From Candidatus Omnitrophota bacterium (GTDB taxonomy: Bacteria; Omnitrophota; Gorgyraeia; B26-G9; JBDRCZ01): a DNA stretch of 64,000 nt. Shown piece by piece: positions 7,323 through 64,000 of the stretch (position 1 is the first letter of the stretch; each line of letters begins with the position of its first letter). The notes below the pieces were generated by a model. That model saw only the letters and a list, made by a program, of their open reading frames with translations, was not told the origin of the DNA and ran no database searches. The position numbers and the translations under genes are program-made. Location of the stretch: assembly GCA_043821285.1 (NCBI GenBank), contig JBDRCZ010000017.1:15947-79946 (forward strand). Reading direction: 5' to 3'.

Positions 7323-7478
7323 GTAATAAAAAGTATTGCGTATCGAGCATTGCGTATTGCGTTTCTTTAAGATAAGAATTTTAATTTTTTTGCTTTTACT
7401 GTTAGCTGCTTGCCCCCAGGATAGGGGTAAACTGAACAGCATGCTCTGTACCCTTTGCTTTATGCTTTGCGTTTTATT

Positions 7479-7522
7479 CGCAATACTCAATACTCAATAC
7501 TCAATACTTAATACGCGATACG
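7479..7522. repeat. tandem heptamer array (CAATACT)n between guaA and dnaE, with inverted partial copy at 7332-7364
   Basis: CGCAATACTCAATACTCAATACTCAATACTTAATACGCGATACG; left arm GTATTGCGTATCGAGCATTGCGTATTGCG is its approximate reverse complement. Confidence 0.6.
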
Positions 7523-7528
7523 AAAAAA

Positions 7529-10969: not shown

Positions 10970-11338
10970 AAAATTTCTTTTACGAGAAATTTTTTATGTA
11001 TTTTTTACTAAAACCTGTGTTCAAAAGGGCTTGACCAAGTTAGTAAAATCTGCGATCATCCTGTGTTATTGTGTTATTTAGTTTGACAAATTAACAGTAA
11101 TAACTTATTATAGTTATTGCTGAAAAACCCCAGCAATGACTTGATTACAGTGATATTCGTCCTTTACCTTTGCTGAAAGGTCATTGCTTGAACTAATGCC
11201 AAGTTACATCAAGGGAAAAAGCTGCAGCACTTAGAGAAAGCTTGAAAACCGTAGGTTCTAATATCACAAGCTGGACGAGTCAAAAGCAAGCATGATAAAG
11301 AATAATTTGACTCGTCCAGTTTGAAAAAAACTACGATT

Positions 11339-16554: not shown

Positions 16555-16738
16555 TAAAATATGAAGTATAAGTTGTAATTAAAGATTTAAAAAGTGTGTT
16601 GTATTCAAAAAAGGGGGATAAATTTCCCGTAAAAGGAACAGGGCGGATCATCAAAGAAGTGCGCGTGATATCCGCCTAACAAACTGGCGGATTAAATTCC
16701 CCGCCAAAAGACATGGCGGGTCATTTAAAGGAGGGGGA

Positions 16739-39581: not shown

Positions 39582-40421
39582 AAGTTAATAGCCTATCAGT
39601 TAATTCCAAATGTTCCGCCTATCAAACCGGCGGACAGGCAAATAATAAAATCCAAATGACAAATGAATCATTTAATATCTCAATCTAAAAATCAAAATGA
39701 TATATTAAAATTCAAATATTTTTCTCTTTGACAGGATTTACAGGATTAACATGATTTTTTATCCAGTTAATCCTGTCTATTTTCTTATTTTCTCTGTGAA
39801 CTTTGTGTTCTCTGTGGTTATAAATTTTTTTATTTTTTTTAATCGTAATACTCAATACATGCTACTCAATACGCATTACTTTTTATAGTGTGCTCTCTGT
39901 GGTTAAAATATTTTTTGTTTTTTTATCTACATAATCATCCGTATTCTACGCTCTCTTTTATATGCACTATTTTCATTACAATCATACATATTGTAACCGC
40001 TAATAATTACAATCTGTTAAATATATTTATAACAATTTTAATATATACAAGTAAAGTATACCATATTTTTCTGATTTTTCAAGGATTTTGCTAAAAAAAT
40101 ATAGAAAATAACAGATTAAAAGATTCAGGTGATCACGGTTTTAAAACAGTATCAAGGCATTATTTATAACTTATTTATTTATAATATATTATAAAATAAT
40201 TATCGAATATGCCTACATGTTAATTATTCGTGAAATTCGTGTAATTTGTTGTTTAAAAATAAGCAGTTAAAGTTTTTCTTTGTGTGATAAATTTTATTTT
40301 TTACCGCAGAGAAAATCTAAAAGAAATCTCGTTCACAGATGTATGTAAGTTACATCCACTTTCTATTCTTAGTGCGTTACGTAAACGGTAAACTGCCTGC
40401 CTCCCGTTAGGGAGGTAAACT

Positions 40422-40446
40422 AAAAAATTGCCATAGGCAATTTTTT
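40422..40446. terminator. palindromic A6-TTGCC-ATA-GGCAA-T6 terminator (bidirectional in form) at 3' end of member C, overlapping its stop codon
   Basis: AAAAAATTGCCATAGGCAATTTTTT; second hairpin CCTCCCGTTAGGGAGG at 40400-40415. Confidence 0.5.
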
Positions 40447-47855: not shown

Positions 47856-47879
47856 AAAAAATTGCCGCAGCAATTTTTT
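47856..47879. terminator. palindromic terminator at 3' end of member D
   Basis: AAAAAATTGCCGCAGCAATTTTTT; adjacent CCTTCCATTAGGGAGG. Confidence 0.5.
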
Positions 47880-50800
47880 AGATTGCTTGTTCTACTGCCA
47901 ACATTTCATTCCACTCTAACTCTGTAAGTGCAGGGGGTTGTTTAGGCATTGTTGTCAATTGTCCTGGGTTATTATCATGAGGATCCAGTCTTTGCTGCTC
48001 TACAATCTTTATTGCTGCTTCAATAATCGCTGCAGTGTCCATCTTATGTGCACGGTATAATATCTCGTGACTTCTTGCGGATTGTCCCCAACCTTGGATT
48101 CCTAACGAAGTTACAGTTGAACCAGTTGTAAGCAGAGATGAAGTTACTACCTTACTTACTGCTCCGCTTAATATTTTTGGAGAAGCGTCTTGAACAGTAA
48201 TTATTGGCACTCCCCGTTCAAGAAGAGGTGGTAAAGCTTCATCGATTAAATCCAATCTGGTCAAATTTATTACTTTTGCGGTAATATCTTGACTTTCCAA
48301 TTGTTCGCTCGCGGCAATTGCAAATTCCACCATTGCTCCGGCAGCAATAATAATAATATCGCTATTTTGTCCGTTTTCTCTTGGATCTTTAATTACATAA
48401 GCACCTTGTTCTGGACTGGGATTTTCTCCTCTATTTAAAACTGGAACATTTTGACGGGTAAGCTGAAGATAAGAAGGTCCTTTACCATCTAATGCCCTGT
48501 GCATAGCAAAATCTACTGCTTCTTCAGCCTCACGGGCATCTGCAGGTATAAAACCAGTCATTTTTTGCAAAAAAGAAATATAGCGAATAACGCCAGCAAC
48601 GATTACTGACTGATGAGTAGAACCGTCTGGCCCAACGCCTAAGCCGGCATGACTTAACGCAACAATTACCGGTAGTTTTGCCCGGGCAATCACAATTATT
48701 TGACTAATCATTCGGTTAGCAAAACAATCAAAGGTTGCGATAACTGGTATCTTACCATATAATGCTAATCCAGCAGCAATTCCTGCCATTGCTTGTTCTC
48801 TTACTCCGGATGGAACGTATCTTCCATTGGTGTTATGACGAGAAAAAATGCCAAAGTCCCTAGCAAACCAATTCAGTCTTGTAGAACTGGCAATGTCCGC
48901 GCAGAAAGCAATAATCTTTTCGACGCGTTTTCCCCAGTCAAGCATCCTGTTACCAAAACCATCACGTGTAGCAAAATTCCTATTTGCTTGGTATCTAATT
49001 TCTGCCGGTGTTTGTAGCATTGTCATTTGAACCGGCTCTGGCTCTTGTGTTTGTTTAATGTTGCTATAAATAAGCAGATTGAATTCCCCAATCTTATAAG
49101 GAACCATTCCATTCAATGCTTCCATAATTGTTGTGGCCATGATGTGTTCATCAAAACCCCGGGTAATAATTAAAACAGGTTTTCCTGTATTATCCTTGTT
49201 TAGCTGTTCAAAGGTTTGACCTAAGATTTCAGCCTGTTCTTGATTATTATTAGCATTGAGCTCAATCACTCTCCAACCATAAGCTTGCCAAATATTAACT
49301 AATTCCGTGTTTGTCTCTGAAGCTTGAAGGACTAAGCAGAGATTATCTATGCCATTGTGTGCGGCGAATCTAGCTGTTTCTGCAAACTGACCTTCTCTTT
49401 CTTCTTTTTCCGTGGCTAAAGCAATAACTCTGCCAGATGCTGTATCCATTTTAGCTCCAAAAGCTATACCTGCGGCCAGAGAAAGACGCATACCCGCAGG
49501 GAATATTTCTTGAGGACTAAAATCTATTTTCATAAGCCCGTCCGTGGGTTTTTCTTTTCCATCAACTAATTCTTTTGCTACTTCTATTATATTTTCAATA
49601 TCCTTGTCACTCATGGACCAAACAACGGAACCTGCGGTTTTAGAAGATGAAGTTACAGTCCTGCTTACCGCATCACCTAAACATACTGGCAATCCATCAT
49701 AAATTGTAAGAATACGGCTTCCTGGCTCAATATACTCTAAGAGCTCACTTCCTGCACCTAATGAGTCTAATTGCGTAACATTTATGATCTTAGTCATCGT
49801 ACCTTGTGATTCTAACTCATTACTGACTTTTATGGTTTGATGAAGACTTTTACCTGAAGAAATAAGAATAACCCTCTTTTTTGCCGTGTCCCACCCTTCA
49901 GATTGACTTATAACATAGGCACCTTGCTCTGGCTGGGGATTTTCTCCTCTATCTATAACCGGAAGATCTGCAGAACTTAAACGAATATAAGAAGCAGTGT
50001 ACTCATCTGGGATATTAAGTGATGTAGGGGCTTTATTTGTTATTTTAGCCAATAATAATGCATTTTTTATTGCCATATCAGTCAACTCATTAGTTTCATT
50101 AGGATCCCCTGGTTCTAACGCAATTACATTATGCATCAGGTCCATAACTCCTGGGGTAAAACTTAACTCTTCAGATTCAGCCGCTAAAATAAACGGTACC
50201 CTTGCCTGAGCATTTATCCTTAATTGGTCTAACATTTTCATCGCATCATTTTCCGGCAGAAAGACAATCGGCAGCATACCCGAATAACCAAACCCAGCAG
50301 CAAAACTGGCTAAGTGCTGTTCTCTATCCTCAACTAAGAAACATCGCTCGATGAGTTTATTTCTTATATCTTCATCAGTAATCTGTGCAATAAATTCATC
50401 AATAAATCTTTGTTTAGAATCGGAATTATTAAAAATAAATACTATCCGTTCATCTTTTTCTGCCCACTGGAGTAGTCTATTTTTAAATGCAACAGATGGA
50501 GAGACTTCCTCATCCTGTGCATAGTTGGTTCTATCTGGTATTGTTGTCGTGTCTGTTTTTTGTAGAGTACTCTCTTTTGATAAATTGTTTTCTTCTTGTT
50601 CTGTCATTTGGTTATCTGAAATAAATCTATCTACATCTGTTGAAAATCCATAAAAATTCATTTGTTGACTAATATTTTCAATTGTGTTTTCTATTTGGGG
50701 GATAGCTTCAGATAGTTCTTTATCATTTAATGCTCTACCGTGAAACGCGGTTGGATCATCTTCCATAAAATCTACGCCTTTACCTTTTTTTGTCTTGGCA

Positions 50801-53553
50801 ATAATTGCTGTTGGCTTGTTTTTAATGTTTCTTGCTTCTTCACAAGCCGCGATAATTTCTAATGGTTCATGGCCATTAATTTCAATAACATGCCAGCCAC
50901 AACCTCTCCACGAACCTGCGACATCCGCACTATCTACTTCTTTAGTCAAGCTATCAATTTGTGCGCCATTAGCATTTACAAATAAGGTAAGATTATCTAA
51001 CCCTAATTCCGCAATATGCCTGGCAGCCTCTGCATATTGTCCTTCCTGTTCTTCCCCATCACCGGCAATAGCAAAGACGTTGGAGTCACGTCCATGCATT
51101 TTAGCTAGAAGCGCCATACCCGCGGCATTGGAGAGTCCCATACCTAAGGAACCGGTCAAGGCTTCTATACCACGAGTACAAATCCAGTCAGTATGTCCAG
51201 GAAGTCCACTGTTTAACTCTCTTAAATGGGATAATTGCTCTTTTGAAATATAGCCAAGTTTAGCTAAAATAGAATAAACTGCTGGCGCTATATGCCCTTC
51301 AGAAATAACTAACCGGTCACGGTCTGGCCAGCGCGGGTCATTTGGTGTATGATTCATAATCCGCGTTCCATCGGAATATCGTCCAAGATATAAAGTGACC
51401 AGTATCTCAGCCGCAGAGAGCGAACCTCCTGGATGTCCTGAACCAGCTATATTAATCATCTCCAGAATATCATTACGGCACATTTCTGCGATTTTCTTTA
51501 ACATCAAGCTTTGGCGCTGCTGTTCTATATAGTCTTTTCGCCAAAAAGCACCAATTATCAAAACACCAACAAGAAATATAGTATATGCGATCAATAAATG
51601 TATTGGAGATTGAAACAGTGTCATTATTGGTATTGAAATGGTTTCAAAACGATGGCTAAATGTTTTTAGTAGTTCGACAAAAGCTAATAAAATCGCACCA
51701 ATTGTGCCCAATAAGGCATAGGGGTTGAATTGTCGAAGGGTTAAATCTTGAGGAAATATATCTGAATTGTGGGGTGAAACATTAGAATCATCCCCTTTCC
51801 TTTTTAAATATTCTATTGCTCCATTAACCACCAAAAGAGCCCTAAAATATGCCTCTAAATAATCTTCTGCTGTTGTAAGAATAATTTTTTGATCATCTAA
51901 TCCAGAACGTGCTATCGGGTGACCTAAAATGTTTTCGTTTTCAGCCATTCTTTGTGAAGCAATCTTCCGCATATGTGTCCAGTTATGAAGTTGATTTACG
52001 CCTTTCAGCGGTAATAAGAGAGGGTTTCTTATACCCTGTGAGGTATAAAATTTTTCAACATCCTCGTCTTTGAGACCTGTCTGCTCTGGCACAAAATGAG
52101 GAGTATCACTAGGATATGCAGCCTCTGCCAAAAAAACATTTGCTGTTATTCTCCCCGAAGAATAATGTTCTGTTACACATTTTAGGTAAAAAACCAATGT
52201 TCCATTTAAAGCAGAGTCAATAAAGCATACTTGCGATGTATTATTATCAATAATTCCTTCATCAATTAACTGCTCATAAGTTTGTTTTGCTTGTTCAGCA
52301 AAAACCGTGTTTGTTTTTAATGTTTCTTCAAAGGATTGTCTTAATTGTGGATAGAAATTTTCCGGATCTCCTTGTTCTGTAGTATTGCGGCGAACTTTTC
52401 GCAATGTGTCTTCAATAATCTTAAAATTGTCGCGTTTTCTTTTTTCCGGAGTAGGATGATCATCTCCTATATAACCTAACATTTTTCGATCAAGATAAAA
52501 TACAAAAGAATTATCAGGGGGAGCCCCTTTTGTCAAAAGACTCAAATAATACTCGGACTCATAGTAAATTGCTCCATCACGTGCTAAATAAACTCTTCGT
52601 CCTTCAGCAGGTAATTGTTCTAATAAATAAGGGATGATTTTAGCTGTGCCTATTAACCACATAAAAGAATCTTTTTTTTGTCTTGAAGTCAAAAAATGGC
52701 AAAGGCTTCTTAGCTTTATATTCAAACTTCCAGTAAATAAGCCTTGATTTCTTACACCTTGTTCTGTCATTACCAATAACTCTTGCTCTCTTCTTCGTAA
52801 TTCTTCTGCTATTTCTACGTTACTTCTCCATCTCAATTGGTCTGGTTTAAGAACTTGATAATGCGTGCGTACCTCATGCCCTTCGATCGGGCTTAAAAAA
52901 TGTATCGGAAATGTTGGACTTATTTCTGGTACATTAATAGAGGTTAACATCATTTCTAAATCCATGGCTATACCTTCTTCGCCGAGTGGATGTCTTAATA
53001 CTGATAATGCGCGCTCTTTAACTTTATCATTGGGGTCTTCCAATATTATTTTTTTCAAAAATTCAACAACCTTTGTTTTAGCTGTCTCACTTTTGTTCCC
53101 AACAATTCCCAAGAGCCGTATTAAATTACTGCGTGGATTGTCTAACACAACACCACCACGATAAAGAAGATCATCAGGGTCAATAATGGTTGGATCATCC
53201 CAAGCAGCGATTAAGGCATTTATCAGTATAATAGCATCGAGACTTAATAATTTTGGAGCTTCATTTCGTCTCCAAATATTAAACTGCGAAAAAGTTAATC
53301 TTAAAACTTGCGTTAGTTCTTCCCTTTTTATCTCTATAGGGTACTTATTTACTGATTGTGTAGATATACCAAGTGTATTTTGTTCAAAAGGCTCTGTAAG
53401 TGAAGACTTACTTATCTCTAAAGGAGGCGAGAGGTGGGTGGACAAATTTTTCAAATTACTATTTGCCGCCCATGAAATGTCAAGACATAAAAAAGAGTTG
53501 ATTAATATAAAGGCTGTTAGTTTGAATAAAATGTCCCGTTTTATTTTTTTCAT
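47878..53553 (-). CDS. giant-array member D (1891 aa): leader, HEAT-like repeats, TM, two tandem transketolase-like units, EQAI tail
   Basis: N-term MKKIKRDILFKLTAFILINSFLCLDISWAANSNLKNLSTHLSPPL; TK TPP motifs GSGHPGGSLSAAEIL and AIAGDGEEQEG; TK Pyr motif GPDGSTHQ; C-term ...LAVEQAI. Confidence 0.75.
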   Translation of the reverse strand: MKKIKRDILFKLTAFILINSFLCLDISWAANSNLKNLSTHLSPPLEISKSSLTEPFEQNTLGISTQSVNKYPIEIKREELTQVLRLTFSQFNIWRRNEAPKLLSLDAIILINALIAAWDDPTIIDPDDLLYRGGVVLDNPRSNLIRLLGIVGNKSETAKTKVVEFLKKIILEDPNDKVKERALSVLRHPLGEEGIAMDLEMMLTSINVPEISPTFPIHFLSPIEGHEVRTHYQVLKPDQLRWRSNVEIAEELRRREQELLVMTEQGVRNQGLFTGSLNIKLRSLCHFLTSRQKKDSFMWLIGTAKIIPYLLEQLPAEGRRVYLARDGAIYYESEYYLSLLTKGAPPDNSFVFYLDRKMLGYIGDDHPTPEKRKRDNFKIIEDTLRKVRRNTTEQGDPENFYPQLRQSFEETLKTNTVFAEQAKQTYEQLIDEGIIDNNTSQVCFIDSALNGTLVFYLKCVTEHYSSGRITANVFLAEAAYPSDTPHFVPEQTGLKDEDVEKFYTSQGIRNPLLLPLKGVNQLHNWTHMRKIASQRMAENENILGHPIARSGLDDQKIILTTAEDYLEAYFRALLVVNGAIEYLKRKGDDSNVSPHNSDIFPQDLTLRQFNPYALLGTIGAILLAFVELLKTFSHRFETISIPIMTLFQSPIHLLIAYTIFLVGVLIIGAFWRKDYIEQQRQSLMLKKIAEMCRNDILEMINIAGSGHPGGSLSAAEILVTLYLGRYSDGTRIMNHTPNDPRWPDRDRLVISEGHIAPAVYSILAKLGYISKEQLSHLRELNSGLPGHTDWICTRGIEALTGSLGMGLSNAAGMALLAKMHGRDSNVFAIAGDGEEQEGQYAEAARHIAELGLDNLTLFVNANGAQIDSLTKEVDSADVAGSWRGCGWHVIEINGHEPLEIIAACEEARNIKNKPTAIIAKTKKGKGVDFMEDDPTAFHGRALNDKELSEAIPQIENTIENISQQMNFYGFSTDVDRFISDNQMTEQEENNLSKESTLQKTDTTTIPDRTNYAQDEEVSPSVAFKNRLLQWAEKDERIVFIFNNSDSKQRFIDEFIAQITDEDIRNKLIERCFLVEDREQHLASFAAGFGYSGMLPIVFLPENDAMKMLDQLRINAQARVPFILAAESEELSFTPGVMDLMHNVIALEPGDPNETNELTDMAIKNALLLAKITNKAPTSLNIPDEYTASYIRLSSADLPVIDRGENPQPEQGAYVISQSEGWDTAKKRVILISSGKSLHQTIKVSNELESQGTMTKIINVTQLDSLGAGSELLEYIEPGSRILTIYDGLPVCLGDAVSRTVTSSSKTAGSVVWSMSDKDIENIIEVAKELVDGKEKPTDGLMKIDFSPQEIFPAGMRLSLAAGIAFGAKMDTASGRVIALATEKEEREGQFAETARFAAHNGIDNLCLVLQASETNTELVNIWQAYGWRVIELNANNNQEQAEILGQTFEQLNKDNTGKPVLIITRGFDEHIMATTIMEALNGMVPYKIGEFNLLIYSNIKQTQEPEPVQMTMLQTPAEIRYQANRNFATRDGFGNRMLDWGKRVEKIIAFCADIASSTRLNWFARDFGIFSRHNTNGRYVPSGVREQAMAGIAAGLALYGKIPVIATFDCFANRMISQIIVIARAKLPVIVALSHAGLGVGPDGSTHQSVIVAGVIRYISFLQKMTGFIPADAREAEEAVDFAMHRALDGKGPSYLQLTRQNVPVLNRGENPSPEQGAYVIKDPRENGQNSDIIIIAAGAMVEFAIAASEQLESQDITAKVINLTRLDLIDEALPPLLERGVPIITVQDASPKILSGAVSKVVTSSLLTTGSTVTSLGIQGWGQSARSHEILYRAHKMDTAAIIEAAIKIVEQQRLDPHDNNPGQLTTMPKQPPALTELEWNEMLAVEQAI

Positions 53554-53752
53554 GATTTGTAGATATGTTTATCCATTCCAGATTTTAAAATTCCCCGCCA
53601 TAATGCGTTGACAGGCAGATTCAAAATTTAAATATTTTCTTTGAAACAAGTGTCACATGATTAATCTGATTTTTTATCCTTCTTTATCCTATTAATCCTG
53701 TCTATTTTTTCTGCTTTTTTGTCTTCCAAATTCTGACTTCTGTTTTCTATCA

Positions 53753-55231
53753 CAGTACTTTGTTAAAAATCAGGTCTTTTCAAAAAAATCATTTACGTAA
53801 GTCGTGAAAACTCATAACTTATGTAATTTCAATACTTTACGTTAATTTTTTCCTTGACAATATCCACAACTCCTGCTATGGTATATAGTTGTAATCAAAC
53901 CACCGTAACACACAACAGGAGGTGGATATGGGTATTTTTAATCTCACTATTTCGGTAATCAATAATTTCTTATTTCGTTTTAAACCTGCCTTCTCAAAAA
54001 AACAATTTATCGTTTTCTCCTTCCTGATCTATGCTTTGTTTAAAGACTACAAGAGAAATTCCCTTTATGCCCTCGCCTCTAAAACTCCAATCAACTATCA
54101 GGCTTGTCAGTACTTCTTATCTGAAGGAAAATGGAGTATCGATGATCTTAATAATATAAGGTTAAAAATTATTGAACATCAAAGAACTACTTCTGCTACT
54201 TCCTCCGGCGTCTTAGTTATTGATGATACTTCTCCTAAGCCTTTTGCTAAAGCTACCGCCGGTGCTAAACGTCAACACTGTGGTGTCTTAAATCGTGAAG
54301 AAATCTGTAATGTTGCTGTATTCTCTGCCTTCGCCTCCAAAACTAAACGCTTCCCGATAAACCTTAAATCTTATCTCCCCGCTGAAAAATTCTTATTTGG
54401 CAAAGAGGATGTAGATTTTAAAAGTAAGCTCGATCTTGCCCAAATATTAGTCGATGATGCCTTAGAAAGAAAAATTAAATTCTCTTCCCTCGTCATAGAT
54501 GCATGGTATGCTCAGTCTTCACAATTCCTTGAGTTTGTTCACTGCCAGAGAAAACTGCCCTTCATTGGTGAATTAAAGTCCAATCGTAACATCTTCTTTT
54601 ACCATCCGCTAAAGCGGAAACACTGCTGGATCCAGCAGGATGAGCTGGTGAAACTCATCAAAAAACATTATCCGCATAAGTGTAGGTTTTTTACCTCCAC
54701 GAGCAAAGATGGTAAGAAGAAGTCTTGGGTCTTCTACACCTTCAAGGGACTGCTGAAAGATTGTTCTGTTCCCTTAAGCATAGTGGTGATCTTTGGTAAG
54801 TGGGATAATCAGGATGATAAGAATGTTCATATCCTTATCTCCAATCAGACCCGCCTGGCTACTAAGACCATCATTTCCACCTACCTGCTTCGTTGGGGAA
54901 TAGAGCTTATCTTCAGGGAGCTCAAGGATGTCTTCTCCTTTGACCAATACCAGGTTAGACATACCAAACAGATCGAACGTTACTAGACACTATGCCTTAT
55001 TGCATGGAGCCTGTTATATTGGGTCAAACAAAATGCCTATCTTACCAAAATCCTTGAGCATAAACCTGCTACCTTCTATGACTACAAACAGGCCATTGAC
55101 TCCTTACTCCTTTATGATGCTCATCAGTCTCTTTCAAAGAACAGTCATCTTGCTCAGAAATATTTTAAAATTAAATCGGATAATTTTAAACAGCAAATCG
55201 CTCGCGTTGCCTGATTTTTAACAAAGTCCTG
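53753..55231 (+). mobile_element. IS4/IS701-family insertion sequence (~1.48 kb) with 22-bp imperfect TIRs and 8-bp TSD TTCTATCA
   Basis: IRL CAGTACTTTGTTAAAAATCAGG vs reverse complement of IRR (CAGGACTTTGTTAAAAATCAGG); direct repeat TTCTATCA at 53745-53752 and 55232-55239; DDE transposase ORF inside. Confidence 0.75.
53922..55221 (+). pseudogene. IS4/IS701-family DDE transposase interrupted by in-frame TAG (codon at 54984-54986)
   Basis: LVIDDTSPKP, LVIDAWYAQS, RWGIELIFRELK catalytic motifs. ORF stops 19 aa after the E motif and a conserved-looking hydrophobic tail (LCLIAWSLLYW...) continues in-frame after TAG. Confidence 0.55.
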
Positions 55232-55287
55232 TTCTATCATTTAAAACATATAGTAGACAGCAAACTGTACACTGTAAACGGTAAACT

Positions 55288-55312
55288 AAAAATTGCCGAT
55301 GGCAATTTTTTT
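55288..55312. terminator. palindromic terminator at 3' end of member E
   Basis: AAAAATTGCCGATGGCAATTTTTTT. Confidence 0.5.
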
Positions 55313-58300
55313 AGATTGCCTGTTCCACGGCCAAAACCGTATTCAATCCTACTCCTTCAAGTAGCGGAAGTAAAGACATCAATTTCTGCATAGGCTTTTC
55401 ACCCTGCTGTCTGCAACCATCTGGAGTGTCTTTTCTTTCTCCATCTTCCATGAAACTCTGAGAAGCTAAATATCTCATTAGTTCTCCTGTTTGATTAGGA
55501 TTGGTTACTCTTACTATCGTAATATTTTCAACTTTAAGAACTAATCGATCATTACCTCCACTCCAAAATTCATCACCAATATATATGTCAGCTGCTGCAT
55601 CTATTACAGCCGCGGCTTTATCTTCTAAGTTTTCAGTATGTTCTTCTACAAAATCTCCCATTTTTTCATCATAGATGAATTTATGATACCCCGGTTCAGA
55701 GGATATGGTATAAAGAACAAGATTTTTTAATAAACCCTGCTTATCTTTCGGGATAGCAAATAATACCTGGCCTTTTACATTAAATATGTTTCCGCCAGTA
55801 ATTATTCTTAGCTTATATCCAACCTCAAGTAAGTTAAGGAATGCATCCAGATTATCTTCTCCGATTATTCCCCAGTAAGGAACAAGTGTGCCATCCATAT
55901 CTATTCCTATAACCTGAATTTCTTCTAACGGTACATGGCCATTTATAATATCATGGACATTTAATGGAGTATTTTGGGTTGTATCTACTGGGGATAGCGT
56001 GCCAAGTGTTTGTTTTGGGACAAAACTGTTTTCTTGCTCACGCTTTGCTATAAATTTACGGTGTGCAAGGACAATAAAGGTAGAAAGTGCAAGACCTTTA
56101 CCCTGCAATTCTTCTACTGTTTCACGGTTATCTTTAAGCTGCGGATCTAAATATGCCGCCAATAATTGCATAAGCAAAGGTTCATTAAGTAATAAATCTA
56201 CTCCCACGTTAACTTCTTGATAAAGTTTTTTTGCCTTTACATAGTCTGAAAAAAGTTCTCCTAATAACGAGGATTCATTGGTTAATTCCGCATACAAATT
56301 ATCGAATATTTCTTCTACAGATATTAATATATCATTGTACATTTCATCAGAAAGATGGCTTCTTAAAAATTCTTCTTGTTCTTGTACTTTCCACGGAGGT
56401 AGATATTTACTTCTCAAACCGTATTGATTTAAACATTGCTCTAACTTATAAAAGATTATTTGTTCAAGAACACTCTCATTATCAACTTTACTGATCAAAT
56501 TTTCTGGCAAGCGGTTTTTAATAAGATTTTTAAGCAGTGTACCAGTCGCCGATGTACTCAATCCGGTTCCATCAGCAAGTGAGTTTGGTGTCCATTCAAA
56601 AGGCAGCCATTCTGACACAACTATTCCGTGAAGATACTCTCTTCCAAAAGATATTCTTCCTCTTGTTCCTAAACCAAAAGTGTGAAGTTGAATGCCAAAT
56701 TGTTCGTTAAGCTTAGCATTTGTAACAGTGGAAGAGTCAGAATTTTTAAGAAGAGCAGCGAAATGTGCTTCAACCTCTGCTAATGAATCAAGCAAACACC
56801 TTGCTTTATGAAGAGTTACACCAGTTTCAACAATATCATCAATTATAAGAACGTTGCGGTGTTCTCTGAGATACTCGACGACCTTTGTATCATTTAGAAA
56901 TAACCGCAGGTCTTCAGGAGAATCTAAAGAGTATACATCTCTTTCAAAACCCAAACGCACCCTTTCAGCTTCTGTCAATAATGACCAAATTATTGTTGTT
57001 AAATTTAACTTTTGAGTAATAATCCAACTTTGGAATTCAGGTATTTCCTTATTAAATAAGTTATTCGCTTTTAACTGAGTAAGCAAAATTTCCAATGCTT
57101 TGGCAATTGGATCAGCTCCTTTTGAGGGAAAGATAACTAAATTTATATCGTGTTGGATTAAATATTTAACAATAGGAAGAAGTATAGGAGCAAATTGCAA
57201 AACTTGTATGTCTGTTCCTAAAGAATCTATGTCTCCAATTTCTTCACCTAATGCAGCTTCGACCGCCTGCCGAAGCTTTCCAGTATATCTGGAGCGATAA
57301 GGACTACGCAGATATCCTTCAATCGTTGGCAAGTTTTTTGCGATCTCCTTTTCAAGCTCTTCTTCAGCCCTCAAAAACATCTGATGCCCTGTTTCTGTCC
57401 TGAATAAAGTTTCACCCAGAAAATTGCCGTCATCTTTGCCTGATTTTTCATAAAGTCTATACTCTTCTTCAAGGCGCTCTTTATTAGTTTTAAATCTGGC
57501 TCGGATCTGTTCAGGTGTTATTTCTATTCCCGCAGCTTCTAAATCAGCAATAATCCCTTGATAAGTACACATAAATAATCTGTCTGCCTCACGCCATACT
57601 GTTATTAATCTATAAAAAGAAGAAGCATTAGCAAAAGGCCCTTCAAAATTAAACAAAAACTGTCCTTTTTCATATAAAGAAGTATCAACACCCATATTTC
57701 TAAGCTCTACTAAGGCCTGTTCAATAGAAGGATTATCATGAGCTTTTACCACACCACAGATTAAATTTACATTTACATCAGTTGCACTTAAAATACCGGT
57801 TGAAATTAATTGTTGGATTAATTCCCTAATCATTTCGGGGGCTTTTTTCATATGCGCAAGCCTAAACGCGATTGTGTTCTGCGCTAATTCTTTTGCCTTT
57901 AACGAATTTCTCTGTTCAATTTTCTTGCGTATTTGAATAATTCTTGCCCGTGAGCCTTCTAACTTGGCGTACCCAATATCATGTAATAAGGCTAATATTG
58001 CTGCGTTTTTAAATTCTTCATAGGTAAAATCTTCTCCTAATCCAATCTGCACCGCGTTCTCTAAGACTTGAGTATGATGATTTACAGGGTTGCCATTTGC
58101 TCCAGCTTTAAAATGAGGTAAGGCGCTCCAAAAAAGTGTGAAGAGAATATTTTGAATTTCTTGTTTTTGCTGGTCTGTAAATGTGCGGTCTTTTTCAATG
58201 CGGCTTAGTGCATTTTCCAAATTCTGAACTGCTAAACTTTTCTTACACTGAACAAGATAGTAGCCATTCTTTTCTTCAATTACTGCTTCTAATCCATTGT

Positions 58301-59036
58301 CTGTAAGAAATTGTTCAAATTCTGCTTTATTAGAAAAACTAAATCGACCACGTCCAGCGTTTATTGGTTCGGCAATCAATATTTCACCTTCTGAACTAAC
58401 TGCCCGAATATACTCCTTTAATAACTGATCACGTTCTTCACGATTACTAAACATGGTAAAGAACCGAATGCTGACCACTTTAGAAAAACTTCCGTCTTTA
58501 AACCGCATGTCCAAGGCACTGGCTTTTACCAAATCAACATTTTTGCTATCTTGCTTTCTATTTTGAGCAATGTTAAGTAAAATTTCATTGGTATCTAACC
58601 CTGTTATATGTTTGCAAAATTGAGAAATATAAAAAGTGAAATGTCCGGAACCACAACCTATTTCTAAAACTTCATCATCATTATCAATATTAGCTTCAAG
58701 CCAGTCTTTAGGGAAGTCTACAAGATAAGATGCAAGCGTACGATCATAAAAATAGGAAAAATATATCTTTTTGAGCCAATCAACGAGTCTTTCAGTCCAA
58801 GACCTGTGAGGAGAAATATCTCGTGTATCGTTAGGCAGCTTTAGCTGAGTTATATTTATTGTTTCTGCAACGTGTTCTTTAAGAATAGAATTATTTATTT
58901 GCAAAGGCGGAGCAAGGTGGGTGGACAAATTTTTTAAATTACCATTAGCAGCCCAGGAAATATCTAAGCATAAAAAGGCGTTAATTAATATAATCGCTGT
59001 TAGTTTGAATAATATATTTTTTTTAATGTTCAACAT
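55311..59036 (-). CDS. giant-array member E (1241 aa): leader + class I SAM-methyltransferase + HD phosphohydrolase + type I phosphoribosyltransferase + HAD hydrolase domains, EQAI tail
   Basis: LEIGCGSGHF (MTase motif I); VNHHT...LLHDIGY (HD); NVLIIDDIVETGVTL (PRTase); VIGIDMDGTL...GDEFWSGGND (HAD motifs I/IV); N-term MLNIKKNILFKLTAIILINAFLCLDISWAANGNLKNLSTHLAPPL; C-term ...LAVEQAI. Confidence 0.75.
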   Translation of the reverse strand: MLNIKKNILFKLTAIILINAFLCLDISWAANGNLKNLSTHLAPPLQINNSILKEHVAETINITQLKLPNDTRDISPHRSWTERLVDWLKKIYFSYFYDRTLASYLVDFPKDWLEANIDNDDEVLEIGCGSGHFTFYISQFCKHITGLDTNEILLNIAQNRKQDSKNVDLVKASALDMRFKDGSFSKVVSIRFFTMFSNREERDQLLKEYIRAVSSEGEILIAEPINAGRGRFSFSNKAEFEQFLTDNGLEAVIEEKNGYYLVQCKKSLAVQNLENALSRIEKDRTFTDQQKQEIQNILFTLFWSALPHFKAGANGNPVNHHTQVLENAVQIGLGEDFTYEEFKNAAILALLHDIGYAKLEGSRARIIQIRKKIEQRNSLKAKELAQNTIAFRLAHMKKAPEMIRELIQQLISTGILSATDVNVNLICGVVKAHDNPSIEQALVELRNMGVDTSLYEKGQFLFNFEGPFANASSFYRLITVWREADRLFMCTYQGIIADLEAAGIEITPEQIRARFKTNKERLEEEYRLYEKSGKDDGNFLGETLFRTETGHQMFLRAEEELEKEIAKNLPTIEGYLRSPYRSRYTGKLRQAVEAALGEEIGDIDSLGTDIQVLQFAPILLPIVKYLIQHDINLVIFPSKGADPIAKALEILLTQLKANNLFNKEIPEFQSWIITQKLNLTTIIWSLLTEAERVRLGFERDVYSLDSPEDLRLFLNDTKVVEYLREHRNVLIIDDIVETGVTLHKARCLLDSLAEVEAHFAALLKNSDSSTVTNAKLNEQFGIQLHTFGLGTRGRISFGREYLHGIVVSEWLPFEWTPNSLADGTGLSTSATGTLLKNLIKNRLPENLISKVDNESVLEQIIFYKLEQCLNQYGLRSKYLPPWKVQEQEEFLRSHLSDEMYNDILISVEEIFDNLYAELTNESSLLGELFSDYVKAKKLYQEVNVGVDLLLNEPLLMQLLAAYLDPQLKDNRETVEELQGKGLALSTFIVLAHRKFIAKREQENSFVPKQTLGTLSPVDTTQNTPLNVHDIINGHVPLEEIQVIGIDMDGTLVPYWGIIGEDNLDAFLNLLEVGYKLRIITGGNIFNVKGQVLFAIPKDKQGLLKNLVLYTISSEPGYHKFIYDEKMGDFVEEHTENLEDKAAAVIDAAADIYIGDEFWSGGNDRLVLKVENITIVRVTNPNQTGELMRYLASQSFMEDGERKDTPDGCRQQGEKPMQKLMSLLPLLEGVGLNTVLAVEQAI

Positions 59037-59935
59037 AATAAATATCTCCAGTTATTTAATTTTAAATGTCCCGCCTATCAAACCGGCGACAGGCAAATGA
59101 ATCATTAAATAATTCAATCTTTAAAATTTATTTATGTAATTTGTGTGATTTGTTGTTAATAAAATAAGTACTTGAAATCTTTCTTTGTGTGCTCCGTGTC
59201 TCTGTGTGACAAATCTAATATTTTTGTTTCGCTTGTCCGCCGTGCTCTGTTTGGCGGGTCATTCTGGTTTCGTTATTCGTTATTAAATTATCCTGTCTAT
59301 CATCCACAATGATTGGCGGATCTTCAATTTTTTATATTTTCTCTGTGAACTTTGCGAGCTCTGTGGTGATAAATTTTTTATTTTTTTTTACCGCGATACT
59401 CAATACTCATTGCTTTTTATAGTGTGCGCTCTGTGATGATAATTTTTGTTTTGTTTTTTTAGCCACAATGCTCAATACACAATACCCGATACTTAATCAT
59501 ATTACTTTTCATAATGCCTTGTTATAAATAAATTTATAACATCTTTTAAATAGTTTTATAAGTATACCATATAATTACGCAATTTTCAAGGGTTTGGGGA
59601 AATTTTTTTTGATTTTGTGATTTCTATGCTTATTGTTTTAACTATTTGGTATTAAAAAAGATATGGCATAGAAAATTAACAACAGCATTATTTAGGCAAG
59701 AATTGATTATATTTTTATTAAAGAAATAAATTGTAAGAGAAAATAATTATTACGATTAGATTTTATTGATTCTAAAATTTTAAATAAATTTTAACTTTAT
59801 TTTTCACCACAGAAAACACTGAGCCCACAAAGAAAAACTTGATACAAATCATACAAATATTTACATGCATAGCCTTCTTCCGTATAATCTGATTCTGCCT
59901 GCCTCCGGTAGGACGGTAAACAGTAAACGGTTAAC

Positions 59936-59960
59936 AAAAAGTTGCCATAGGCAACTTTTT
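59936..59960. terminator. palindromic terminator at 3' end of member F
   Basis: AAAAAGTTGCCATAGGCAACTTTTT. Confidence 0.5.
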
Positions 59961-62900
59961 AAATTGCCTGTTCTATAGCATACACCATATCTAATTCAAA
60001 CAAGTTAATCTCTGGCGCATCATCCGGTTGAGATACAATCATTAGAGCAGTGCTTGGTTTTATAGGAGGATTATTTTGATCTAACTCATCTGGGTCATTG
60101 CGGAAAGACCCATATTCATCTTCGCTCCAGGGATAACAATATATTGAAGTTCCCCCATCCTTTTTTTTCTCAAGAAGACCGTATTCTGATAATCGATTAA
60201 GAACTGTCCTTACCCTGTCTGTGCCCATATATCTATAATTGCGGAATTCATCTCTCAATACCTCAGCAACCTCTGATGCTTTAAACTCCCTACCGTTAGC
60301 AAAATTCGCCCAGACTGTACGAAGTATAACTTTTTCATTACCGGGCTGATTGTTCTCCTGTAGTGTAATATTGTCCCAGTAAGATAAATATGATTGGTCA
60401 AATTCCTCTTTTGACAAATCCCGCAATTCCCGTTTATGTTCTTGGTCAATTGCTGCCATCTCACGATATACAATGCATTTGTTTAAGTGTGCGAGTGACA
60501 GCAATAACGGCACATTTTTTATCTGCCCCTTGTTTATTCTTTGCGTTTCTGATATTCTTAAAATCTGTTTATAATATTCTATTGTTTTGTCATAACACGA
60601 TAGTGCTTTTATATATTCTTCTTTATCATTTTGCTCAAAACCATTTTCCGCATATTCAGCGCCTTCTTCAGCATACCATGCAGCTGCTTCTGTAAAAATA
60701 TCTACTGCACCAGCAAAATATTTTTCCTTAATATATTTACTAGCTAACGCTTTATAAACATTAGCGGACATTGGCATACTGCTATCTGGATAAAATTGTT
60801 TTCCTGTTGACTGGTTACTAGTTCTCGTGTGTGATGGTATTATCATTCTTGCAGGTGTGCTACTTTGGGGAGAAACTCCATTATATGTTGTATCAAAACC
60901 CCTAGTATATGCGAATTGCCATTTTTGTGGTATGATATTTCGTAATACCTCCGCGATAAAGGCAGGTGGGGTTAAAATCCAATTTGCTACCTTGATTAAG
61001 GCTTCAGAATATCTTTTACCTTCTAATTTATCCTCCATCCATTTTAGTACTGTAGCGCGCTGCCAGAAGCCAAGATATTCTCCAAAGAAATAGAAAAATA
61101 CTACTGCTGCCCATCCTCCCACACCCGCCAGGTCAAAAGGTATAATTAAACGGCCCGCACCTCTATTTCTGAGTCTATCTTGTATAACAAAATGCGGCAG
61201 TGGGACATTAAACCTTAATATCTGCCTTTCTCTACTTAATATTAAATCAGCATTGCCTAAATTTGCTTTACCGATAACTTCATCTATAATACTCCTCACA
61301 ATCACTTTTTCTCGATTATTACACCCGCGGTAAATCGCTCTAAAATATTCTCTTAGTAGAGAACGGATCATTATAAGCTGAACATTGTCTTGTCTTATGT
61401 ATACTTCAGCAGCTGAACGTACTGCTATTTCAAGTGCTTCTTGTTTGTGCGCTGGCAATATTCTGTATGTCTGATTAGCCACTGTGCCCCTATCTTGTGT
61501 GACATAAGGGGCTATCACTTTAAAAAGTACATGCCGTGCATCTGCTTGAGAAAGATATACTAATCCTTTTAATGTGTCATCCATGACCGCTTTAGTTAAC
61601 GGGTGTTGTCCTGGATTTTGAATAGAACTGTAAATTCTAGCGATAATTTCTATATTAATTCTCTCTATAGGTGTAGAATCTATTTTAAATTCATAGCTTC
61701 CTACATCGTCTTTTCTAACGGTCTGCACAATTTCATTTACTTTTTGAATAATCTCTTGTCTTTCATCTTTTAAAAGGCCTATATCTTCTCTTGATAAAAA
61801 GCTTGCTAAAAACTCCAGTTCTAATGCTTGCTGAAGAGCATTTTCTGGAGAAAAATTATTAATCCCTTGTTTAAGAGCATCCATCATGGAAACTTCTAAG
61901 TTTATACCAGGGCGATAAGTGTGTAAAAAAAACCTTTTGATATTGATAAATTCTGGCAAAAGAATAACCTCTTTAGTGTCTAAATTTATAGTCTCATTTA
62001 TAGTTTCTTCTAATATAGAGCTAAACGGGCGAAGAAGTACTAATCTTTCATAAAGAGTCTCATCTGAATGAAAAAATGTTAAATAGATCACAAGTCTTAA
62101 ATAATAATCCGCCAGAAAAACACCATCTACAGTAAACTCTATGTTACCATCTTTATCTCTACGGCTTACAGTTAAACATTTGTACAAAAAATTATCTATC
62201 TCTGTAAGCATCCGATATAAGATTTCCATCGCGGTTTCTGTATTCTGTTCTAAGGCAAGCTCAAGAACATTAGTGACATTTGAGAAATCTTGCAAAACAA
62301 CATATTCTTTAAGAACACCCCATAGACTATCAAACAACTCATGGTCTTCACGATGATAAGCAAATGCAGCCAGGCCAACAAATGACGCTAAGTTTGCTTT
62401 TAAATTTAAACCGGTATTTATCAAATAGCTTATTTCCTTTTCTATATAAATGAGTATAATTTTAGAAACATCACCTCCGGCAATAAAGGTATAAACAATC
62501 ACTGCAAAAAGGGCGTCGTGTAATTCCTCATCTTCCGGAGATATATTTAATCGTTGAAGTATTTCAGCCAACACTGCTATTACCATATCAATTTCTTCGA
62601 TATTATCTTGTATATGCACGCGCATTTTATTAATAAAAAATACCAAAACATGGCGAAGTTCATTTTTTAGATGACTGTCCAATTTTTCCCAGTCTCCTTC
62701 TTCCGTTTCTGTTAAACTTTGTATTTCAGCTTGGACACGGTCTAATTCTTCATTCAACGAGTTTATTCTTTCTGTATTTGAAGGGGCCGGACTTCTCTGT
62801 CTCTGTCTTTGTCTCTGCCGCCTTGAGCTTCTTGGTTCTGACCTACGCTGTAAGTTTTGTATTTCCCGGGTAATCTCTTGCTCTCGCCCTTTCAGCGCCG

Positions 62901-64000
62901 TTAGTTCTTTTCTGCTGGCAATAATATGCTCTAATAAATTGCTTATATCTGTTTGTAATCGGTCATCTGCTGGTCTAACGACCGATGGTTGCTTATCTTC
63001 AGCAGTTGGTTGTTCTGTAGGAATTAATGCTATTGATACTTTTATCGGGTCATCAAACGGCCAATCAATACTTTGGCTTAGCATTCTCTGAAACTCCACA
63101 AATAATTCTTTACTGTTTTTTTGCCCATTAACCTGCTCTGCAAAAATTTCAAACATATCTTCTCTGGTAAGACTACCTTCAATTAACGGTCTAATATCGG
63201 CTGTAGATTCTACAAGAATCATACTAACCGAGCGCAGTGAATTTTCGATTGTATCAGCCTTAATAACCCTATCTTCTTTATCTTGCAAATATTCTCTGAT
63301 TAAATATTGCAGTGCTTCTCGGTTAACACTAAGGGTTGAGCTGGCAAAATACATTACTATCTCTAAATAGTACATCCGCATCTCTTGCTTTCTTGCCCCG
63401 GCAATTTTTTTGATAATTTCTTCAAAATAATCTTTATCCTCCTCAAGTTTATCTTGCCAGAGATTTGCTAACTGGTAAAGAGCCGTCCTTCTTGTATTTT
63501 CATCTCTACTTTCTCTTAGTTTTCTGATAAGCTGTGCTTCGCGCTGTGTAGCAAGATTTTGATAGATTTCATCTATTTCAAACAATATCTCCAATTTTTC
63601 TCTTAATTTTATTCTTTCATTACCCAAACGGCCATCATCCGTGCCTTGGAGAACTAAATTCCCTAATATCTCAATGGCACATCTCTTGCGCATCTTATTA
63701 AGCGGTGTGAAGTTATTAAAGGATGCTTCTATTAATACTAAACCCATTCTTTCTAAAGAAGCGCCTTGAGCAAAAAGGGTTCTAAAATATAGACCGATAT
63801 TATAGTGGTCCGGCGGCAGTTCTGTAAACATCTCTATTTCAGAACGGTCAACAATCTCTTGAAACAATATTTCGATTAAGATAGTTAGCAATCTGTAACG
63901 TCTATTTTCAACCCCAGTAAGATAGAGTACTAAACTATTAGTAAACTCCGCTAGACCAATTATTACTTCTTCTGGTAATTCGGCTGTTTTCAGTTCGGGT
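59959..64000 (-). CDS. giant-array member F (>1345 aa, 5' end beyond window): RQ-repeat, module paralogous to member C, TPR-like C-terminal region, EQAI tail
   Basis: Frame open to window edge; RRQRQRQRQRS; ~450-aa alignment with C; C-term ...VYAIEQAI. Confidence 0.7.
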   Translation of the reverse strand, partial: PELKTAELPEEVIIGLAEFTNSLVLYLTGVENRRYRLLTILIEILFQEIVDRSEIEMFTELPPDHYNIGLYFRTLFAQGASLERMGLVLIEASFNNFTPLNKMRKRCAIEILGNLVLQGTDDGRLGNERIKLREKLEILFEIDEIYQNLATQREAQLIRKLRESRDENTRRTALYQLANLWQDKLEEDKDYFEEIIKKIAGARKQEMRMYYLEIVMYFASSTLSVNREALQYLIREYLQDKEDRVIKADTIENSLRSVSMILVESTADIRPLIEGSLTREDMFEIFAEQVNGQKNSKELFVEFQRMLSQSIDWPFDDPIKVSIALIPTEQPTAEDKQPSVVRPADDRLQTDISNLLEHIIASRKELTALKGREQEITREIQNLQRRSEPRSSRRQRQRQRQRSPAPSNTERINSLNEELDRVQAEIQSLTETEEGDWEKLDSHLKNELRHVLVFFINKMRVHIQDNIEEIDMVIAVLAEILQRLNISPEDEELHDALFAVIVYTFIAGGDVSKIILIYIEKEISYLINTGLNLKANLASFVGLAAFAYHREDHELFDSLWGVLKEYVVLQDFSNVTNVLELALEQNTETAMEILYRMLTEIDNFLYKCLTVSRRDKDGNIEFTVDGVFLADYYLRLVIYLTFFHSDETLYERLVLLRPFSSILEETINETINLDTKEVILLPEFINIKRFFLHTYRPGINLEVSMMDALKQGINNFSPENALQQALELEFLASFLSREDIGLLKDERQEIIQKVNEIVQTVRKDDVGSYEFKIDSTPIERINIEIIARIYSSIQNPGQHPLTKAVMDDTLKGLVYLSQADARHVLFKVIAPYVTQDRGTVANQTYRILPAHKQEALEIAVRSAAEVYIRQDNVQLIMIRSLLREYFRAIYRGCNNREKVIVRSIIDEVIGKANLGNADLILSRERQILRFNVPLPHFVIQDRLRNRGAGRLIIPFDLAGVGGWAAVVFFYFFGEYLGFWQRATVLKWMEDKLEGKRYSEALIKVANWILTPPAFIAEVLRNIIPQKWQFAYTRGFDTTYNGVSPQSSTPARMIIPSHTRTSNQSTGKQFYPDSSMPMSANVYKALASKYIKEKYFAGAVDIFTEAAAWYAEEGAEYAENGFEQNDKEEYIKALSCYDKTIEYYKQILRISETQRINKGQIKNVPLLLSLAHLNKCIVYREMAAIDQEHKRELRDLSKEEFDQSYLSYWDNITLQENNQPGNEKVILRTVWANFANGREFKASEVAEVLRDEFRNYRYMGTDRVRTVLNRLSEYGLLEKKKDGGTSIYCYPWSEDEYGSFRNDPDELDQNNPPIKPSTALMIVSQPDDAPEINLFELDMVYAIEQAI

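Follow-up and report, generated by a model that had tools for sequence, protein, structure and literature searches.

What might a protein do, and where, if it carries a methyltransferase, a phosphohydrolase, a phosphoribosyltransferase (PRTase)-like module and a phosphatase-type core on one chain behind a leader of the export type? The question is raised by gene E, which lies in a stretch of 64,000 nucleotides (nt) of the Candidatus Omnitrophota bacterium contig JBDRCZ010000017.1; this whole stretch is called the window here, and all coordinates count from its first letter. Six consecutive minus-strand genes, A to F, together take up more than half of the window, and gene E comes fifth among them. 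From N- to C-terminus its product is read as a leader, a methyltransferase domain, an HD domain, a PRTase-like module of ~440 amino acids (aa), a cap-less HAD-IIB domain and a C-terminus ending in ..VEQAI. The reading that we favor, with modest confidence, is that this protein is exported, is sorted by way of its leader and tail, and processes ribose-phosphate or nucleotide compounds.

Four enzyme-type domains on one chain

Gene E encodes a single, genuine multi-enzyme polypeptide in this Omnitrophota bacterium. Its reading frame is unbroken and is preceded by a GGAG at 59046-59049, 9 nt 5' of the ATG, and its product matches the NCBI entry 'MAG: methyltransferase domain-containing protein [Candidatus Omnitrophota bacterium]' with 100% identity over 100% of its length, an entry that comes from a contig of 85,997 bp. 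The unbroken frame and the identical full-length NCBI protein together rule against separate genes merged by mistake, a reading that the initial annotation had left open in proposing a four-enzyme fusion. GC content is uniform over the four domain segments (0.34-0.37), which gives no hint of chimeric assembly. All of the motifs quoted in that annotation are present, each inside the range of nucleotides then given for its domain, and the proposed order of methyltransferase, HD, PRTase and HAD was essentially right, the PRTase being the weakest of the four assignments. That annotation did not note the ~440-aa extent of the PRTase-like module with its helical C-terminal half, the loss of the HAD cap, or the C-terminal tail common to the tagged genes. 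The parts of gene E are as follows.

55311..59036, minus strand: gene E, a single open reading frame (ORF) of 1,241 aa with an ATG start, a stop codon at 55311-55313 and zero internal stops
58947..59036, minus strand: leader, aa 1-30, resembling a Sec-type signal peptide (manual reading, -3/-1 rule)
58896..58946, minus strand: conserved stretch NGNLKNLSTHLAPPLQI after the predicted signal peptide, aa 31-47, including xLAPxhxh (leader alignment)
58329..58715, minus strand: class I S-adenosylmethionine (SAM)-dependent methyltransferase domain, aa 108-236 (Pfam, PDB relatives)
58638-58667, minus strand: methyltransferase motif I, LEIGCGSGHF, aa 124-133 (read from sequence)
57342..58241, minus strand: HD-domain phosphohydrolase module, aa 266-565 (homology, fold, invariant residues)
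57969-57989, minus strand: HD motif LLHDIGY, aa 350-356 (read from sequence)
56637..57209, minus strand: PRTase-like core of the PRTase-like module, aa 610-800 (PF00156 below threshold, PDB profile matches)
57102-57125, minus strand: candidate pyrophosphate (PPi) loop SKGADPIA (manual reading, unconfirmed)
56811-56855, minus strand: predicted phosphoribosyl pyrophosphate (PRPP)/ribose-5-phosphate-binding loop NVLIIDDIVETGVTL, aa 728-742 (from motif)
56007..56636, minus strand: helical C-terminal half of the PRTase-like module, aa 801-1010, with DGxGL and PWK motifs (conserved in 7/7 family members)
55467..55925, minus strand: HAD-IIB type phosphatase/mutase core, aa 1038-1190 (profile, catalytic motifs)
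55884-55904, minus strand: HAD motif I, IDMDGTL, aa 1045-1051 (read from sequence)
55548-55577, minus strand: HAD motif IV, GDEFWSGGND, aa 1154-1163 (read from sequence)
55314..55334, minus strand: C-terminal tail LAVEQAI-COOH (common to all six tagged genes)

No second full-length match to gene E was found among 5.8 billion clustered and 1.84 billion representative proteins, in agreement with the earlier remark that no characterized protein has this order of domains, and no paralogs of its modules occur elsewhere within the window. As far as these databases reach, the exact architecture is new. Three of the four domains (HD, PRTase and HAD) miss their Pfam cut-offs in gene E itself.

The methyltransferase lies well above its thresholds, scoring 60.5 bits with Methyltransf_11 (PF08241; cut-off 21.2, E = 2.6e-16) and 58.5 bits with Methyltransf_25 (PF13649; cut-off 27). 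Its motif I and the ITGLD segment (aa 144-148), which provides the acidic post-I residue at the end of strand 2, align to the SAM-binding part of methyltransferases in the PDB. The closest solved relatives are phosphoethanolamine N-methyltransferases (E = 5e-10), accompanied by generic small-molecule methyltransferases, and the NCBIfam equivalog matches all fall far under their cut-offs (CpaM, for instance, reaches 59.8 bits versus 180). We regard the predicted methyltransferase assignment as unambiguous.

The HD assignment has the support of homology and fold, though Pfam HD (PF01966) reaches 15.2 bits in gene E against a cut-off of 22. Identity to the module is 44% in protein P0003, whose C-terminal half it forms behind a ROK kinase domain, and 40% and 28% in the two tandem copies of P0002, a protein that passes Pfam HD at 42.8 bits. 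In an alignment of four module sequences, H320, H352-D353, H395, H433-D434 and D485 are invariant. The resulting pattern in gene E, H..HD..H..H..D, is diagnostic of a dinuclear site according to a review of the HD superfamily (PMC8177086), and the module thus appears to carry the complete six-residue set of dinuclear ligands. It has the all-helical HD/PDEase fold, with fold neighbors that include (deoxy)nucleoside triphosphate hydrolases and Legionella SidE-family phosphodiesterase domains. Compared with B. subtilis YpgQ and related small HD phosphohydrolases (5dqv, 2pq7, E. coli YedJ 3gw7), it is longer (~300 aa versus ~180-215 aa), and its six-residue set is of the dinuclear type whereas YpgQ binds a mononuclear Mn (PMC8177086); we do not claim membership of the YpgQ subfamily.

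For the HAD domain, profile searches and all four catalytic motifs agree with the initial annotation: motif I D1046-x-D1048-x-T1050, motif II T1080, motif III K1140 and motif IV G1154-D1155...D1163. D1046, D1048, T1050, T1080, K1140 and D1163 are invariant in an alignment of eight sequences, of which six have Asp at D1155 and the other two Asn. Gene E by itself matches the Plasmodium Cof-type PfHAD1-type structure 4qjb (E = 1.5e-4). From end to end, the family profile aligns with L. lactis alpha-phosphoglucomutase 4bnd (E = 3.8e-12), and it also reaches PMM2 (E = 5e-6), PfHAD1, phosphomannomutases and other IIB members. Pfam Hydrolase_3 matches 7/8 family members; gene E itself scores 16.3-16.9 bits against 20.9.

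With HAD-IIB enzymes such as 4bnd, the eukaryotic phosphomannomutases and the Cof-type PfHAD1, gene E has the four motifs in common, GDxxxxGGxD included. It differs from them in the C2B cap, the ~100-aa element between motifs II and III that is present in solved HAD-IIB structures and in 7/7 homologous copies. About 100 aligned residues are deleted in gene E, which keeps a hairpin-sized stretch. Because the cap is lost, cap-dependent sugar-phosphate specificity or mutase chemistry is unlikely to have been kept; the catalytic core appears intact and the specificity-determining lid gone. Judged from these alignments, the cap-less HAD-IIB of gene E is new. Giant proteins contain homologous copies of the domain (in P0007, and three per protein in P0010 and P0013), and the comparison suggests that the gene E domain may derive from a module widespread in such proteins. 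P0010 (4,423 aa) and P0013 (4,408 aa), both from outside the window, have full-length, capped HAD copies and a related leader, ..ILIxSFLxYDxxWAG..; near its C-terminus P0010 also has 'GRYGTLHE', which we take to be a LOG-like motif.

A rare PRTase-like module

The third module (aa ~575-1010 of gene E) contains the canonical PRPP motif VLIIDDIVETGVT at aa 729-741, in which four hydrophobics lead to an acidic pair and TG..T. Across the 7/7 members of its family, neither the loop Gly nor the Asp that opens the acidic pair varies. PF00156 scores 20.7 bits against the whole gene E protein and 22.3 bits against the module alone, versus a cut-off of 26.3, and the match spans profile positions 86-128 of 158 only. 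When a profile of the seven family sequences was compared with the PDB, 27/27 matches had the PRTase fold (PRPP synthetases, HGPRT, OPRT, Gpt, APRT and PyrR), all of them at the PRPP loop and the next helix and strand, with a Sulfolobus PRPP synthetase as the top match (E = 8e-4). With the variable insert spliced out of the profile, the PDB matches were mostly of the PRTase fold, at best E = 5e-4. The defense protein ShosT was likewise matched at the PRPP loop of gene E.

Outside this loop the comparison gives little. Used as a profile, the N-terminal part of the core returned zero PRTase matches from the PDB, the hits being spurious ones to ankyrin ('GADP') and calmodulin, and SKGADPIA was likened to the 'SRGGLVP' loop of XGPRT by manual reading. 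An hhalign comparison of the family with E. coli Gpt as single-sequence template aligned the PRPP loop alone, at 4.5% probability. An AlphaFold model of the module, built from a two-sequence alignment, had a predicted local distance difference test (pLDDT) score of 41 and was not used as evidence; a Foldseek search with it gave nothing below E = 0.4, that is, noise. The C-terminal ~200 residues are predicted to be helical with low confidence and showed no meaningful PDB match and no detectable relatives. A similarity to NAMPT_N at aa 855-902 was rejected as chance, being absent from the family profile of that region and matched in 1/7 members. Hence the PRTase call of the initial annotation stands for the PRPP-binding loop with its ~45 flanking residues, and the remainder of the fold could not be confirmed. 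We describe the module as a probable PRPP/ribose-5-phosphate-binding, PRTase-like unit, without counting it among the demonstrated members of PF00156.

Type I PRTases and PRPP synthetases (PF00156; HGPRT 1bzy, S. solfataricus PRPP synthetase 4twb) share with gene E the four hydrophobics, the acidic pair, x-T/S-G-x-T, and the helix and strand that follow, a likeness that extends to the 'SLLVK' strand of HGPRT. The gene E family differs from them in its ~440-aa module, in a long insert before the loop in the homologs and in a ~200-aa helical C-terminal half, and the PPi loop and hood of PF00156 proteins are not demonstrable in it.

The module has few relatives. An HMMER scan of the 1.84 billion representative proteins with aa 567-1241 of gene E gave 11 matches in all, six of which (P0006, P0008, P0009, P0011, P0014 and P0015) share a collinear PRTase-like module of ~440-520 aa. 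A word-indexed homolog search with the family alignment returned P0015 alone, the index being insensitive for this query, and a scan of metagenome contigs with a subgroup of the family found nothing. Two of the six proteins, P0009 (574 aa) and P0015 (517 aa), consist of little besides the module, which argues that it is an autonomous unit.

The fusion partners bear on the ligand. In P0011 a bona fide ribose-5-phosphate isomerase A (RpiA; PF06026, E = 1.3e-39) lies N-terminal to the module, and in P0006 a double transketolase does. P0006 lines up collinearly, first with aa 683-1840 of gene D (its catalytic part) and then with aa 572-992 of gene E, a 'Rosetta stone' link between genes D and E that ties the module to enzymes making ribose-5-phosphate. 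Together with the PRPP synthetase as best structural match, the RpiA and transketolase fusions make PRPP or ribose-5-phosphate the expected ligand, either being possible; the fusion partners themselves point equally to both. By these comparisons, the family and its RpiA and transketolase fusions are new.

Leader, tail and genomic setting

The gene E leader has a basic n-region (K5, K6, K11), a 13-residue hydrophobic core LTAIILINAFLCL and a c-region DISWA|A, features taken from manual reading and a hydropathy scan; the scan found no further transmembrane (TM) segment in gene E. The same leader stands at the start of the complete genes A to E, and the same tail ends genes A to F, the N-terminus of F probably lying beyond the window end. 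As the initial annotation had held, gene E shares this leader, being 60-76% identical to genes A-D over the first ~55 aa. The consensus of the leader is M..L.R.I.FKL.AIILINAFLCLDISWAA.GNLKGL.THLAPPL.I and that of the tail is [LIVAF][IVA]E[QR]AI-stop (FIEQAI, IAEQAI, EIERAI, AVEQAI, AVEQAI and AIEQAI in genes A-F). The other five genes of the array are listed below.

29833-32820, minus strand: gene A, leader and tail, cargo unrelated
33141-39581, minus strand: gene B, leader and tail, cargo unrelated
40445-47536, minus strand: gene C, leader and tail, cargo unrelated
47878..53553, minus strand: gene D, leader and tail, cargo a double transketolase
59959..63891, minus strand: gene F, running off the window end, tail

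Beyond the first ~55 residues and the tail the tagged proteins are unrelated, with one exception in genes C and F. This suggests that leader and tail are a tag put on diverse cargo, and the tagged cargo appears biased to sugar-phosphate and nucleotide enzymes. Neither the leader nor the tail is covered by any Pfam or NCBIfam model. A term search of the two preprints on Omnitrophota long proteins cited below turned up no mention of either, and the pairing of this leader with the ..EQAI tail is, by these comparisons, new.

Leader and tail also turn up outside this contig, the tail in three further Omnitrophota assemblies. Locus L002 has two in tandem (332-4243 and 4565-7840) that end in ..VLVEQAI and ..LELIEQAI, gene 98-2752 of locus L001 ends in ..AELIEIAI, and the leader-bearing P0005, with UDPGP-like and guanylate kinase domains, ends in ..LALIEASI. 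A scan of species-representative genomes with the leader gave two loci only, both from Omnitrophota; a scan of metagenome contigs with the leader found nothing, and a word-indexed search with the leader alignment returned only the 67-aa fragment P0016, the index again being insensitive for this query. The xLAPxhxh element recurs after the predicted signal peptide in multidomain proteins of different metagenome-assembled genomes (aa ~28-36 of P0006, aa ~38-46 of P0009, and the L002 genes, compared with aa ~38-47 in genes A-E), in the variants THLAPPLQI, THLSPPLEI, ETLAPKLQL, STLSPAINL, FYLAPPSGP and FMLAPETEV. Two of the proteins that bear it have the PRTase-like module and are without the EQAI tail.

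The neighbors have features of their own. In gene D the leader is followed by ~600 aa without a Pfam match, 2-3 TM-like segments (aa 611-673) and two transketolase units; finding a thiamine-diphosphate enzyme behind a leader of the export type is no less puzzling than gene E. The sole cargo similarity among the six genes is a 590-aa region without Pfam annotation, 36% identical between gene C (aa 1734-2297) and gene F (aa 288-874). Genes D and E are separated by an insertion sequence (IS) element whose 23-nt inverted repeats (53752-53774 and 55210-55232, 96% complementary) enclose a plus-strand DDE_5 transposase ORF at 53922-54986. Gene F is followed by a hairpin and T-run. With that hairpin and T-run after F and the IS element before D, gene E should form its own transcription unit. 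A second transposase-like ORF, of IS200/Y1 type (27148-27954, minus strand; PF01797, E = 2e-14), lies ~1.9 kb past the 3' end of gene A, and the plus-strand half of the window holds ordinary housekeeping genes.

The spacer 5' of gene E (59037-59958, ~920 nt) is uncommonly long and AT-rich, with repeated 'cacagag' words and contains no ORF of at least 60 aa and no Rfam hit; Rfam and tRNA scans gave nothing near gene E, and a promoter/terminator scan did not rise above the shuffled expectation. The motif CGCCGGTTTGATAGGCGG, which can form a hairpin and has GCCTGT before it, lies ~35-50 nt 5' of the start codons of genes E (59071-59088) and B (39615-39632), both on the minus strand. A copy with 2 mismatches occurs at 16672-16689 (minus strand); by chance not one of these copies would be expected. 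Directly before the ATG, a ACATTTGGAATTAAC-like sequence is common to genes B, C, D and E. The CGCCGGTTTGATAGGCGG and ACATTTGGAATTAAC elements may have a common regulatory role or may be left over from a duplication of 5' ends.

Possible site and mode of action

Under the reading that we favor, the leader would direct Sec export, and leader and tail together would serve as a family-specific sorting tag. The enzymes would then work outside the cytoplasm, in the periplasm, at the cell surface, or in a host or prey cell after delivery. The PRTase-like module would bind ribose-5-phosphate or PRPP, or transfer a phosphoribosyl unit, supplied with its ligand by the gene D transketolase and, in other organisms, by the fused RpiA or transketolase. 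The HD domain would hydrolyze phosphoanhydride or phosphoester bonds of a nucleotide, the open cap-less HAD would take off a phosphomonoester and the methyltransferase would methylate a substrate or product. The overall logic would be ribosyl-phosphate transfer followed by dephosphorylation, as in the making or salvage of nucleosides. The nucleotide or nucleoside chemistry on an exported scaffold that the initial annotation had suggested is thus plausible as a prediction of both substrate and export.

Two-step riboside routes that use a PRTase and a phosphatase offer a parallel. The logic of such routes, of which CobT/CobC in alpha-ribazole synthesis is an example, is that a base and PRPP give a 5'-phosphoriboside and then the riboside. 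Anantharaman et al. in 2012 are said to have described PRTase and HAD genes in Ter-associated 'nucleoside-like metabolite' clusters. A PRTase-type domain co-occurs with a HAD phosphatase in such gene clusters and in gene E. CobT/CobC and the Ter clusters, however, consist of separate cytoplasmic proteins encoded in operons, whereas gene E is a fusion with an export-type leader and additional HD and methyltransferase domains, and the likeness is one of logic.

Several points weigh against the favored reading. SAM, PRPP and, for gene D, thiamine diphosphate are cytoplasmic cofactors, which fits poorly with an extracytoplasmic site. Either the protein reaches the interior of another cell and the enzymes act there, or its body is not exported by the leader. 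The near-invariant hydrophobic core is unusual for ordinary signal peptides and over-conserved, so the leader may be recognized by something other than, or besides, Sec, and the signal peptide was judged by hand. The PRTase-like assignment spans ~50 residues only, with a sub-threshold Pfam score, an N-terminal part without a PRTase match and a model at pLDDT 41. HD and HAD are also under their Pfam cut-offs in gene E, and the cap-less HAD may have another type of substrate or no small-molecule specificity. The IS element parts gene D from gene E, so the two are not co-transcribed now. More generally, we infer activity, substrate and localization of gene E from its sequence.

Should the leader stay uncleaved, as an anchor or assembly tag, the body would remain in the cytoplasm of a genome-reduced cell as a membrane-tethered metabolon and, with gene D, take part in the cell's own pentose-phosphate and nucleotide metabolism. 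The arrangement would suit the cofactors and substrates of all four gene E domains and of the gene D transketolase, which on general family knowledge are cytoplasmic, as well as the housekeeping-like character of the tagged cargo (transketolase, guanylate kinase, UDPGP) and the unusual degree of conservation of the leader core. A published topology survey, moreover, reads many Omnitrophota long proteins as anchored in the inner membrane with their domains in the cytoplasm. Nonetheless, we consider tethering unlikely. The positive charges lie N-terminal to a ~13-residue core with S-W-A|A behind it, as in cleavable N-in signal peptides, which would place the body outside; gene E is without a second TM segment that would return the body inside; and a conserved extreme C-terminus is hard to square with a simple anchor.

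The cofactor problem would also be eased by delivery into another cell, and gene E could be a secreted anti-host or anti-prey effector that harms or reprograms that cell by draining nucleotide, PRPP or SAM pools instead of running a synthesis or salvage route, akin in concept to the polyvalent proteins of phages and conjugative elements. The neighboring cargo (transketolase) and the RpiA fusion elsewhere are anabolic and of housekeeping type, not typical toxins, and no toxin, immunity or defense context was found at the gene E locus. Nor is a delivery apparatus encoded beside the array: the PilZ domain fused to a type II/IV secretion ATPase (T2SSE; 11321-12718, plus strand) lies ~17 kb from the nearest array gene and on the other strand. 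What speaks for an effector is the resemblance of the PRPP loop to that of the defense effector ShosT, the (deoxy)nucleoside triphosphate hydrolases and SidE-family phosphodiesterase domains among the HD fold neighbors, and a leader and tail that suggest dedicated secretion. The preprints propose Omnitrophota as host-dependent or predatory and read their long proteins as extracellular effectors, and polyvalent multi-enzyme proteins are known in conflict systems (PMC5512222). On balance we hold a poison-like effector to be decidedly unlikely. A defense-system assignment was rejected separately, since PADLOC gave a generic methyltransferase match (mad2) and the ShosT PRPP loop only. Type II secretion system and pilZ genes have been noted near Omnitrophota giant genes (bioRxiv 10.1101/2023.11.21.568195).

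We judge it very unlikely that gene E is a largely non-catalytic scaffold, with the methyltransferase and possibly HD as its enzymes and the PRTase-like module and perhaps the cap-less HAD as ligand-binding or structural remnants: three of four domains under Pfam cut-offs, a deleted HAD cap, a PRTase-like module diverged beyond recognition outside the PRPP loop and extreme rarity of relatives would fit, but the six-residue HD set, the HAD DxDxT/T/K/GD..D residues and the first Asp and loop Gly of the PRTase-like module are kept across few, highly diverged homologs, the pattern expected from purifying selection on active sites.

Returning to export by way of leader and tail, we raise speculatively that the leader (..LINAFLCLDISWAA-GNLKxLxTHLAPPLxI) and [LIV]xE[QR]AI-COOH form a previously undescribed two-part Omnitrophota sorting signal that exports cytoplasmic-type metabolic enzymes (transketolase, guanylate kinase, UDPGP and the four-domain fusion of gene E), possibly into a host or prey. 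In one possible mechanism, the enzymes would leave by way of Sec, and a PDZ-type component of a type II-like secretion machine would then recognize their free C-terminus. There would then be an outside chance that gene E is a secreted 'metabolic effector' built on a new ribose-phosphate-binding enzyme family.

Long and giant multi-enzyme proteins of Omnitrophota are already known, as 'Archaeovorins' (bioRxiv 10.1101/2023.11.21.568195) and as 'multi-enzyme metabolic clusters' or Pfam module 1 (bioRxiv 10.64898/2026.06.07.730766). Both preprints describe long proteins that commonly have a signal peptide or TM helices and tile unrelated enzymes, and one of the two reports a co-occurrence module of methyltransferase (PF08241), HATPase, GNAT, HAD and HD. 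Gene E resembles these proteins in its phylum, its N-terminal leader, which would correspond to their signal peptide or TM segment, and its unrelated enzymes (methyltransferase, HAD and HD) in one chain. It is far smaller, at 1,241 aa against the 10,000-residue scale, reaching >100,000, of one preprint; the other calls its proteins giant. Unlike the Archaeovorin type, it has no HEAT repeats, no glycosyltransferase (GT) or glycoside hydrolase (GH) families and no TM bundle, and its predicted topology is 'signal peptide only'. It also has the PRTase-like module; the word 'phosphoribosyl' is absent from the 2023 preprint. Gene E is a small case of the known phenomenon, probably of the 'signal peptide only' kind.

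If the favored reading holds, gene E would be a compact, tractable example of how Omnitrophota put cytoplasmic-type enzymes on signal-peptide polypeptides, at 1.2 kaa against giants of 10-100 kaa. Its rare PRTase-like module would be a new, testable enzyme family tied by fusion to ribose-5-phosphate-producing enzymes, its natural cap-less HAD-IIB can be tested separately, and the paired N- and C-terminal tag may define a new sorting route. Whichever way it falls, the answer on localization would constrain models of how host-dependent Omnitrophota feed on or manipulate their partners.

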